IMG/VR virus record: IMGVR_UViG_2645727673_000004
Source of the DNA: a virus
Taxonomy: Duplodnaviria > Heunggongvirae > Uroviricota > Caudoviricetes
Strand: one strand, 5' to 3'
DNA length: 5,217 bases
Both the position numbers and the translations under genes were made by a program. Shown in pieces: positions 3,671 to 5,178 of the stretch. The first letter of the stretch is position 1, and each line of letters opens with the position of its first letter. The notes below the pieces were generated by a model, which was given only the letters and a program-made list of their open reading frames with translations, was not told the origin of the DNA and did not search any database.

Positions 3671-4006
3671 ATGAAGTGGATTGTAATTGATACAGTTATC
3701 CAGCCATCATGCGGAATATCTTTTTCAGTCATATGGAGTAAAGTAAAATTAATAATCTGGTATCAATCGGATGCTTTCTTACCTCCTGAAAGTATATTTA
3801 CACTGACTCACACAGGTATCATGCTCAATAACAAAGTGCTACCTGTAACCATTTACAACGTAGTACCATTCAATAAAACATTCTGGAATTTAATCAAAAA
3901 CAGCCAGGAATGCCCTACAAATACAGATAACGTATTGAATGAATGCTTTAATAACCGTTGCATTCTGCAAATATGTCCTTATGGACTAAAACAACAAAGT
4001 CCATAA
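3671..4006 (+). CDS. Hypothetical protein, AT-rich orphan ORF (111 aa) opposite to the late operon
   Basis: ATG at 3671 is preceded by AAGGAAG (3660-3666). A 111-codon open frame in strongly AT-rich sequence is unlikely by chance because stop codons are AT-rich. Protein is [111 protein letters not shown]; no family recognised. Confidence 0.45.
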
Positions 4007-4027
4007 GGAGTTTACTCACATCTGACA

Positions 4028-4062
4028 AAATCAATATAAACAGCCCCTCCGGAGAGGGGCTG
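4028..4062 (-). terminator. Rho-independent terminator on the late strand (3' end of repeat unit R1)
   Basis: Perfect 9-bp GC-rich stem CAGCCCCUC-(4-nt loop)-GAGGGGCUG at 4041-4062, followed on the minus strand by UUUAUAUUGAUUUUGUC. There is no U-tract on the plus side. Confidence 0.6.
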
Positions 4063-4276
4063 GAGAGTGGCGCTATGTGCCATTGCATGGTGCCGGGTGC
4101 CTCCCGGTGAATTCAGTACCAGCACCTGAATCCGCGATTATCCCATATACCTACTCGCTGATTACCCCTCCGCACAGGGGGATTCACCATGCGAAATTTT
4201 TTAACAAACTTCCCGCCGGCCAGACAATAATCGCCAGCCTGAATTATGAGCAACGTGGCATTTTACGGGAAAACTG
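4041..4276. repeat. Repeat unit R1 of a diverged ~240-bp direct repeat (paralog of 4505-4746)
   Basis: Aligns with 4505-4746 along its whole length with several indels, roughly three-quarters identical by eye. Shared blocks include the 20-mer AGCCCCTCCGGAGAGGGGCT, GCATGGTGCC-GG-GCCTCCCGGT-AATTCAG, GGGGGATTCACCATGCG and TTTTTAACAAA...CCAGACAAT. Confidence 0.75.
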
Positions 4277-4283
4277 TTTTCTG

Positions 4284-4310
4284 CAGTAAAAAGGCCCGCC
4301 GGAGCGAGCC
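4284..4310 (-). terminator. Imperfect GC-hairpin terminator on the late strand, upstream boundary of R1
   Basis: GGCCCGC-CGGA-GCGAGCC at 4293-4310 has a 7-bp stem with one mismatch and the same CGGA loop as the repeat hairpins, followed on the minus strand by UUUUUAC. Confidence 0.4.
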
Positions 4311-4496
4311 TGGAAGGATAGCGGTCATGTGATGCCGGTTTCCCGGTAACTCAGCATCGGTATCTGAGTCAACGTTTTCTCTACTGGGTCATTTCCGATA
4401 CGTTCCGCCTTCCGGCAGACTTTCATCACGTCAGAAAATATAGCACCCTGAGTAACAGGACAGTACTCAGAATTCAGGAAACTGTGACACATCCTG

Positions 4497-4524
4497 CACA
4501 GAAAAGCCCCTCCGGAGAGGGGCT
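4497..4524 (-). terminator. Rho-independent terminator on the late strand (3' end of repeat unit R2)
   Basis: Perfect 8-bp stem AGCCCCUC-(4-nt loop)-GAGGGGCU at 4505-4524, followed on the minus strand by UUUUCUGUGC. Confidence 0.55.
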
Positions 4525-4746
4525 GAAGTATAGCCTAATTTCTGTCTGTCGCATGGTGCCAGGGGCCTCCCGGTAAATTCAGCCTGTCTACTGAATTTGC
4601 ATGTTCTCTGGATCATACACTTTGCCAGATGCCCCGCCGCTGAGGGGGATTCACCATGCGATGTAATTTTTAACAAATTCTCCGGCAGCCAGACAATCAT
4701 CAAGCTGTGGAATTGTGAGGTATTTAAAAATTTCAACGGGTAACTG
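4505..4746. repeat. Repeat unit R2 (paralog of 4041-4276)
   Basis: See R1. Same block order and orientation, and the same palindromic 20-mer at its left end. Confidence 0.75.
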
Positions 4747-4890
4747 ATACCCTGCTAATCGCCTGATGCTTTCTTTTTCAGCAACGGGAAAGCAACAACC
4801 ACACACCCGCCACCAAAACACCATCAGACAGCACCGACATTATCCGGCTGCTGAAGTCCACCATCACCACCAGAAACAACAGGAGTGCAA

Positions 4891-4939
4891 CCACAGCTGC
4901 TTAGAAGGCAATTGCTCTGCCCGGCTGAGCTAACAACGC
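4891..4939 (-). pseudogene. Degenerate tRNA-Arg(UCU)-like fragment (5' half only: acceptor arm, D-arm, anticodon arm)
   Basis: Minus strand reads GCGTTGT-TAGCTCAGCCGGGCAGAGC-A-ATTGC-CTTCTAA-GCAGC, with the D-arm and anticodon loop (U33, anticodon UCU) arranged like argU-type tRNA-Arg. No T-arm (no GTTCGAATC) or acceptor 3' strand follows, so it is a remnant. Confidence 0.3.
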
Positions 4940-5039: not shown

Positions 5040-5115
5040 TGGTGGCCCTTGCTGGATTTGAACCAGCGACCTGGCGATTATGAGTCGCTCGCTCTCACCA
5101 CTGAGCTAAAGGGCC
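5040..5115 (-). tRNA. tRNA with CAU anticodon, most similar to tRNA-Ile2 (ileX/ileZ-like, lysidine type); may be annotated tRNA-Met
   Basis: Minus strand GGCCCTTTAGCTCAGTGGTGAGAGCGAGCGACTCATAATCGCCAGGTCGCTGGTTCAAATCCAGCAAGGGCCACCA is 76 nt and folds as a canonical cloverleaf: 7-bp acceptor stem, GCTC/GAGC D-stem, anticodon loop CUCAUAA, T-arm GCTGG-TTCAAAT-CCAGC, encoded CCA. It differs at only a handful of positions from E. coli ileX as I recall it. Confidence 0.9.
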
Positions 5116-5150: not shown

Positions 5151-5178
5151 CAATAAAAAACCCGCTCGGCGGCGGGTT
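5151..5178 (-). terminator. Rho-independent terminator on the late strand upstream of the tRNA (tR'-like)
   Basis: Minus-strand RNA AACCCGC-CGCCGA-GCGGGUU forms a 7-bp stem followed by UUUUAUUG. Its position upstream of the ileZ-like tRNA matches the tR' position in Stx-type phages. Confidence 0.55.

Follow-up and report, generated by a model that had tools for sequence, protein, structure and literature searches.

Genomic setting

The window, i.e. the whole stretch of 5,217 nt analyzed here (IMG/VR record IMGVR_UViG_2645727673_000004), is 99.9% identical to many E. coli chromosomes and represents the late region of a lambdoid (lambda-like) E. coli prophage, including the "moron" segment between Q/tRNA and the lysis cassette. 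In the annotated genome M217 the minus strand carries, in this order, the gene of the antitermination protein Q (just outside the window), a phage tRNA gene with the anticodon CAU (5040..5115, minus strand; tRNA-Ile in RefSeq), a DUF3927 gene (4894..4778, minus strand) and an unannotated stretch that holds the small RNA (sRNA) genes described below. An iraM-like anti-adapter gene follows on the opposite strand (3671..4006, plus strand), and then, again on the minus strand, a DUF1737 remnant, a class II holin, YdfR, lysozyme and Rz, with iss/bor on the opposite strand. Within the late operon the tRNA gene precedes the array of sRNA genes, and the iraM-like ORF is convergent with the array; in a 99.9% identical genome RefSeq names WP_001333560.1 "anti-adapter protein IraM". 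No stx genes are present in this region, and the annotated context contains no recombinase gene near the palindromes. Between Q and the holin gene we found four terminator-like hairpins on the minus strand, at 5178..5159, 4524..4505, 4311..4292 and 4062..4041, the first of which is tR'-like.

The palindrome and the divergence of the flanking repeats

The 20-mer AGCCCCTCCGGAGAGGGGCT occurs in two exact copies in the window, at 4042-4061 and 4505-4524, which are 463 bp apart in direct orientation and have the loop CGGA on the plus strand. The preliminary description was right that the 20-mer is identical in both repeats and right about the position of the second copy, but had placed the first at 4043-4062. 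No other site in the window matches AGCCCCTCCGGAGAGGGGCT with up to three mismatches, and no match was obtained in 200 dinucleotide shuffles. The third hairpin, reported earlier as having the same CGGA loop on a different stem, is real and reads A4292-GGCCCGC-CGGA-GCGAGCC-T4311 on the plus strand.

The repeats around the two 20-mers have indeed diverged, being ~70% identical over 291 aligned columns, 39 of which contain gaps. They are thus old copies rather than products of a recent duplication, which had been named as a circumstance that would undo the original reading and which we reject as the source of the two identical 20-mers. The longest perfect run between the repeats (21 nt) is at the hairpin; further perfect runs include one of 19 nt (TCGCATGGTGAATCCCCCT) and three of 10 nt, so that the hairpin is not the sole conserved block. 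A run of at least 21 nt arises in ~3.6% of match-string shuffles (p about 0.036). By itself, the pairwise "perfect conservation" is therefore weak evidence of constraint, exceeding chance by a small margin; what argues strongly for constraint is the alignment of the whole family. Two points were absent from the preliminary description, namely that the repeats are opposite-strand genes of a known sRNA family and that the hairpin sequence is generic.

Three tandem genes of the STnc100 family

The Rfam scan of the minus strand of the unannotated stretch yielded three matches to STnc100 (RF02076, gathering score 47 bits). Copy C (4689..4496, minus strand; 138 bits) and copy A (4220..4032, minus strand; 132.5 bits) both cover the full model (1-206) and score above the gathering score, and copy B (4460..4285, minus strand; 30 bits) scores below it. 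In each of the three alignments the palindrome aligns to the terminal helix of the Rfam model, from which it follows that the "repeat copies" are tandem genes of a catalogued sRNA family and that the third hairpin is part of a middle copy that has diverged. Our own covariance model (R1, see below) assigned 163.5 bits to copy C, 176.9 bits to copy A and 34.7 bits to copy B (E = 2.8e-7). The setting of the genes, in the late/moron region of a lambdoid prophage as seen in the 99.9% identical annotated genome, is that of STnc100, and BLAST searches with the window's STnc100 copy matched 354 phage records, mostly of Stx phages. The NCBI annotation pipeline omits STnc100 genes in these genomes, and one place bears a spurious antisense pseudogene call.

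The RNA ends and promoters of the three copies were inferred by homology, from the mapped ends of PasD2. This sRNA of EPEC E2348/69 was mapped to NC_011601.1 741157-741328 (PMC8550237 supplement); in the genome sequence it starts exactly at the G of GCAUGGUGAAUCC (GCAUGGUG), ends in the terminator U-run and is preceded by TTGACT-18-TAAAAA-7-G(+1), homologous to the promoter place of copy C. On this basis copy C (4497..4659, minus strand) would give an RNA of ~163 nt, from 4659 to ~4497, copy A (4033..4192, minus strand) an RNA of ~160 nt, from 4192 to ~4033, and the diverged paralogue copy B (4286..4430, minus strand) an RNA of ~145 nt. A sigma-70 promoter of its own seems to precede each gene. 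The putative promoter of copy C (4667..4696, minus strand) consists of TTGTCT (4696..4691), an 18-nt spacer and the extended -10 element TGtTAAAAA (TAAAAA 4672..4667), which lies 7 nt before G4659; that of copy A (4198..4227, minus strand) has the same composition, with TTGTCT at 4227..4222, an 18-nt spacer and TGtTAAAAA (TAAAAA 4203..4198); and for copy B we predict an extended -10 element TGcTATATT at 4445..4437 (minus strand). The TAAAAA elements lack the usual final T. The promoter blocks TTGTCTGG and TTTGTTAAAAA are conserved in 23 diverse copies of the family.

Single-sequence folding of the predicted full-length RNAs gave -64.9 kcal/mol (z = -3.2) for copy C, with the architecture of the family, -50.3 kcal/mol (z = -2.8) for copy B and -69.8 kcal/mol (z = -3.1) for copy A. 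Common to the three folds are a long-range closing helix, internal hairpins, an unpaired linker of 23-27 nt and the terminator. The closing helix is formed by GCAUGGUG/CACCAUGC in copies C and A and by GUGAUG/CAUCAC in copy B; the single-stranded linker of copy C has 26 nt.

The palindromes as probable intrinsic terminators

Read on the minus strand, the three hairpins have stems of 8-9 bp with 6-7 G-C pairs and a C(UCCG)G tetraloop of the UNCG type. In copy C (4505..4524, minus strand; -17.3 kcal/mol, z = -3.2) the hairpin is AGCCCCUC-UCCG-GAGGGGCU, followed by UUUUCUGUG at 4504..4496. In copy B (4292..4311, minus strand) it is AGGCUCGC-UCCG-GCGGGCCU, with one U·G pair, followed by UUUUUAC. 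In copy A (4041..4062, minus strand; -20.3 kcal/mol, z = -4.2) the 20-mer at 4042-4061 is extended by an extra C-G pair to 9 bp and followed by UUUAUAUUGAUUUUG; 36 nt separate this hairpin from the stop codon of iraM, which runs towards it. The U-rich tails (UUUUCUGU in C, UUUUUAC in B and UUUAUAUU in A) have no counterpart on the plus strand. The U-tract of copy A is interrupted (GUUUAUAUU), so the efficiency of termination there may be modest. A terminator scan of the window placed all three hairpins on the minus strand with T-rich tails, among 10 sites in total against 2.3 expected.

The hairpins thus combine a stable G+C-rich stem-loop with an adjoining U-rich tract on the transcribed strand, and their position is that of the 3' end of a transcription unit: in the Rfam alignment they fall on the terminal helix, and the mapped PasD2 RNA ends at the corresponding place. 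We predict, with a probability of about 0.9, that each palindrome is the Rho-independent terminator of a minus-strand sRNA gene, three of which (C, B and A) stand in tandem. The palindrome is real, and it is an ordinary feature of a known family.

Family-wide covariation

We aligned 23 diverse copies of the family with MAFFT and built the covariance model R1 from that alignment; a search with R1 identified 125 copies, 83 of them distinct, from 100 sources. RNAalifold applied to the 23-copy MAFFT alignment recovered helices like those of the Rfam model and revealed compensatory changes in the terminator. In the R1 alignment of the 83 distinct copies, which is fitted to the model and so favours structure, but whose helices are the same as those obtained from the independent MAFFT/RNAalifold alignment, 99.2% of cells are standard pairs and 27 of the 35 pairs show compensatory (two-sided) changes. 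None of 500 shuffles reached the observed covariation, and slid controls were 38-52% paired. The terminator helix (helix 6 of the family alignment) covaries in all 7 of its 7 pairs, with 98.8% of cells paired; each position of the stem tolerates compensatory swaps. Since a finder of perfect-stem hairpins is biased to paired terminators, the claim of covariation rests on the covariance-model alignment together with RNAalifold. The conserved structure of STnc100 (closing helix, hairpins, linker and terminal hairpin) is thereby recovered.

How special is the 20-mer?

The exact 20-mer terminates 34 of the 83 distinct family members (~40%) and is missing from the other 49, and its inner 16-mer occurs in 47 of the 83; these fractions refer to homologues gathered from viral contigs by the 20-mer and the core motif, a mix of loci that is not an unbiased sample of terminator types. 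The alternative terminal hairpins of the family include AUCCCCUCUCCGGAGGGGAU, ACCCCUCUCCGGAGGGGU, AGCCCCCUCUUCGGAGGGGGCU, GGCCCCUCAUAGCAGGGGCC, GGCUCCUCAUCGCAGGAGCC and the PasD-type GGCUGCGCAUGGCGCGGCC.

Bacterial contigs representing one genome per species contain the 20-mer in at least 120 stretches, against ~1 expected by chance. At least 119 of these lack the STnc100 core and come from unrelated species (e.g. Steroidobacteraceae, Arthrobacter, Xanthomonas, Photobacterium). In the 119 unrelated occurrences listed, the 8 nt after the 20-mer, taken in the orientation with the UCCG loop, contain 5.8 T on average, and 89 of the 119 have an ORF of at least 80 codons that ends within 120 nt upstream (median 24 nt). 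The 20-mer also closes unrelated phage genes (loci L208, L213 and L221). It is thus a generic, near-optimal terminator hairpin that arises by convergence, and an extra sequence-specific role of the 20-mer itself, e.g. in contact with a protein, is not favoured.

Copy B as a probable maintained paralogue

A complete scan of the viral contigs detected the motif specific to copy B in 117 of them; the flanks were complete for 116 B copies, of which 97 are bordered by an STnc100 core on either side. In these 116 viral contigs two alleles of B predominate, which are distinguished by compensatory changes within the second hairpin and by a terminator that has been rebuilt. Because the differences between the alleles are compensatory and STnc100 genes stand on both sides, copy B looks like a maintained paralogue and not a decayed one. 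We also considered the identity of copy B with PasD and rejected it, as PasD is a subfamily with a long linker and another terminator. More speculatively, and with odds that we consider to be against it, copy B may represent an unnamed STnc100/PasD-related subfamily under structural selection, and the core and terminator blocks may be recombination joints that shuffle promoters, bodies and linker/seed modules. If this were true, the shuffling of modules among lambdoid prophages would create new sRNA specificities.

Proposed mechanism and alternative explanations

The hairpin and U-tract would release RNA polymerase at the end of each sRNA gene and, in analogy to other Hfq-dependent sRNAs, would form a stable 3' end, which protects the RNA and to which Hfq binds. 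The linker of 23-27 nt is the likely region of base pairing and contact with Hfq; that the RNAs are Hfq-dependent base-pairing sRNAs is inferred from the relatives EcOnc27 and PasD. In the lysogen, the series of terminators together with the tR'-like hairpin at 5178..5159 would also block stray, Q-independent transcription into the holin and lysis genes, and upon induction of the prophage Q-modified polymerase starting from pR' would presumably read through all of them to the lysis genes.

A possible, if rather doubtful, extension of the last point is that the hairpins are primarily cis-acting insulators, which silence holin and endolysin unless Q reads through, and that the short RNAs are by-products with no function in trans. 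This would agree with the presence of four minus-strand terminator-like hairpins between Q and holin, with their position ahead of the lysis cassette, and with the observation that family members can have one hairpin sequence in place of another. However, the upstream core of 110-130 nt is conserved more strongly than a spacer and its helices covary, each copy has its own conserved promoter-like blocks, and homologous genes give discrete RNAs that accumulate bound to Hfq and have numerous partners in RIL-seq. An insulating role is in any case compatible with the explanation of the palindromes as terminators of sRNA genes and not exclusive of it.

The identity of the arms would follow from the terminator function if nearly any single change weakens a near-optimal hairpin, and recombination among the sRNA modules of prophages would also spread the same 3' module; we attribute the identical arms to these two causes together. 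That gene conversion over short patches, or recombination, between copies in tandem or in different prophages made the 20-mers identical, in place of purifying selection on each copy, is unlikely. Traces of exchange are evident: locus L174 corresponds to the window without the body of C and without B and the promoter of A, with the crossover inside the conserved core block; locus L127 joins an A-type body to a B-type gene (a different downstream module), its identity to the window stopping exactly at the 3' edge of the hairpin; and in the family alignment one and the same linker-plus-terminator module recurs in combination with differing variable hairpins. Judging from these joins, the conserved blocks appear to be sites where prophage modules recombine. 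The suggestion in the preliminary description that the palindromes may mark boundaries of rearranged segments is in this way borne out in a mundane sense, since the hairpin ends a promoter-to-terminator cassette and modules join at the conserved blocks. Yet conversion alone explains neither the compensatory changes in every pair of the terminator nor the independent 20-mer terminators in at least 119 unrelated species, and a patch of 21 nt is short for RecA-dependent conversion. Recombination thus probably contributes to the identity of the arms but does not replace selection for the terminator.

The preliminary description had left two alternatives, the stem of an RNA terminator and a DNA site for a dimeric binding protein or recombination. 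The former is corroborated by the hairpin, the U-tail, the coincidence with the 3' end of STnc100 and the covariation. The latter, i.e. an operator or the crossover site of a recombinase or invertase, is in our opinion very improbable, even though the arms are perfectly inverted repeats of each other, 463 bp separate the two copies and the boundaries of modules coincide with the hairpin. The paired cells of the family alignment contain 143 G·U/U·G combinations versus 7 A·C/C·A, which indicates a constraint on RNA made from one strand and not on a symmetric DNA site; the strand-independent constraint on a symmetric duplex with conserved sequence that would characterize a DNA palindrome is thus not what we observe. 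The T-tract is present on one side only. The hairpin of copy B loses a pair on the plus strand, where its U·G pair turns into a C·A mismatch, and is accordingly weaker there (-10.3 kcal/mol, z = 0.14, as compared to -15.6 kcal/mol, z = -3.9, on the minus strand). Moreover, the copies are in direct and not in inverted orientation, ~60% of the homologues have other hairpins at the same place, the 20-mer is widespread downstream of genes in unrelated phyla, and the vicinity contains no recombinase gene.

Finally, we regard as practically negligible the chance that the palindrome, although G+C-rich, extragenic and present in more than one copy, is a member of a REP/BIME-like family, because a BLAST search with a 30-nt query around the hairpin matched 2,435 of the 5,426 complete E. 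coli genomes searched, with 1-9 sites in each (median 2), and 118 of the 135 occurrences of the 20-mer among the viral-contig matches listed stand behind an STnc100 core. It is absent from 2,991 of the 5,426 genomes (55%), and the genome closest to the window has just the window's two copies, which is not the distribution of a repeat dispersed in many copies in the core genome. The REP-like repeat was rejected by this search. The earlier concern that the 20-mer might be common genome-wide is thus unfounded for E. coli.

Implications

The finding changes little, as a striking intergenic palindrome of a prophage turns out to be the ordinary terminator of a catalogued sRNA family. Nonetheless, the three sRNA genes, including the sub-threshold middle paralogue, merit annotation. 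Identical G+C-rich, UNCG-capped hairpins recur by convergence across bacteria, and such hairpins should therefore not be read as binding or recombination sites without checks of strand asymmetry and covariation.

Comparison with known systems

STnc100 is among the most frequently annotated sRNAs (PMC9029176). The family RF02076 was first listed in Salmonella, and 11 copies are annotated in E. coli O157:H7 EDL933; the 11 copies of EDL933 are transcribed according to RNA-seq, one of them having been verified by Northern blot (PMC5331693). Copies A and C share with RF02076 the closing helix, the hairpins, the terminal hairpin and the site in the late region. What differs in the window is that three genes stand in tandem, that the middle one is below the threshold and that the array converges on iraM and not on an anti-sRNA.

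In Stx2 phages an STnc100 copy lies 75 nt downstream of stx2B (PMC12370729). EcOnc27/sRNA103, credited to Tree et al. 2014 and to Gruber and Sperandio 2015 in the papers that cite them (PMC7873438, PMC12711010), is located downstream of stx2B and is Hfq-bound (PMC7873438, PMC4104026, PMC12711010), as seen by Hfq-CRAC (PMC4104026, PMC7873438), and stx2-adjoining relatives have been statistically linked to clinical outcome (PMC12711010). The genes of the window resemble EcOnc27/sRNA103, which overlaps an STnc100 prediction, in occupying a moron site between pR' and the lysis genes. The gene of Stx2 phages, however, forms a convergent dyad with the anti-sRNA AsxR, whereas the window has no stx and no Rfam match to AsxR/AgvB (RF02703/RF02702) at E-values up to 1; matches at the gathering threshold were also absent from loci L154, L127, L174 and L248. 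Hence, the second A-rich hairpin that follows many of the homologues is not ascribed to an anti-sRNA.

A common ancestor of PasD and STnc100 has been proposed (bioRxiv 10.64898/2026.05.13.724894). The three copies resemble PasD1/PasD2 (Pearl Mizrahi et al. 2021; Zhu, Shabalina and Storz 2026 preprint) in the structured core, the type of promoter and, as predicted, the start at the 5' strand of the closing helix and an end within the U-tail of the terminator, and the PasD-type locus L248 scores 116.9 bits for STnc100, i.e. above the gathering threshold. PasD differs by its linker of ~61 nt and by the seed UGUGAG next to the terminator GGCUGCGCAUUGCGCAGCC, a combination that is absent from the window's three copies with their linkers of 23-27 nt; among the loci examined, PasD-type 3' ends occur only elsewhere (e.g. 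L248, L273, L285).

As to the hairpins themselves, they are like canonical intrinsic terminators with UNCG tetraloops, with a G+C-rich stem, a C(UCCG)G loop and a 3' U-tract, and differ from them in nothing substantive. The sole notable point in this comparison is that the exact 20-mer arose repeatedly in unrelated bacteria. At the level of the whole array, the sRNA genes resemble the promoter- and terminator-bounded "morons" of lambdoid phages (Juhala et al. 2000, as cited in PMC4104026), in that they are self-contained cassettes that end at the hairpin and have mosaic breakpoints at its edge.

The middle gene of the sRNA array

The middle member of the array of three tandem minus-strand sRNA genes (A, B and C) is the sRNA-like gene B (4286-4445, minus strand), which scores 30 bits against the Rfam family STnc100, below the gathering threshold of 47. 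Gene B retains the extended -10 element TGcTATATT, the architecture of the STnc100 family and a strong terminator. The gene B motif GTTACCGGGAAACCGGCATCAC is present in 117 viral contigs, and STnc100 genes lie on both sides of B in 97 of 116 viral-contig copies. Two alleles of B were found, which differ by compensatory changes. We suggest that gene B may represent an unnamed subfamily.

Comparison of the viral contig L174 (3866-4354) with the window (4919-3964) revealed that L174 corresponds to the window without ~480 bp, comprising the body of C, all of B and the promoter of A. The junction falls within the conserved core block GCATGGTGAATCCCCC, from which we infer that the array gains or loses genes through homologous recombination among its copies.

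The 20-mer palindrome, read as the terminator hairpin of A (4042-4061) and C (4505-4524), occurs in identical form in no fewer than 119 bacterial species from unrelated lineages (loci L002-L121, bacterial genome contigs), where ~1 would be expected by chance. When oriented by the UCCG loop, it is followed by a T-run in nearly all unrelated-species occurrences among the matches listed. The 20-mer seems to represent an "ideal" terminator hairpin that has evolved convergently.

Other features of the array and its flanks

On the plus strand, promoter-like TTAACA-16-GACAAT sites are found at equivalent positions in both repeats (4201-4228 and 4670-4697), mirroring the inferred sRNA promoters and oriented away from the genes those promoters serve. 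They may have arisen by chance from the A/T-richness of the promoter sequence, or they may be divergent promoters. RefSeq leaves all three sRNA genes unannotated and places a partial pseudogene ("hypothetical protein") antisense to copy A (~4077-4202, plus strand; positions 9178-9303 of locus L001). This ORF is probably spurious. The iraM-like gene has its stop codon within a perfect 12-bp inverted repeat (3976-4009; TCCTTATGGACT / AGTCCATAAGGA, 10-nt loop), which shows no clear U-tract on either strand.

In the interval from the Q gene to the tRNA, the minus strand contains a terminator-like hairpin AACCCGCCGCCGAGCGGGTT (5159-5178), followed by TTTTTATTG. This hairpin probably represents the late promoter's tR', in which case a short transcript from pR', equivalent to lambda 6S RNA or StxS, may terminate there. 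The tRNA itself (5040-5115, minus strand) has a CAT anticodon and is assigned as tRNA-Met by ARAGORN and as tRNA-Ile by RefSeq. A plus-strand Rfam match to "Plastid-ycf2" over the same position was rejected as a sub-threshold antisense-tRNA artefact (36 bits vs. a gathering score of 65.7). If the RefSeq assignment is correct, the tRNA is presumably lysidine-modified, as with the ileZ genes of Stx phages.
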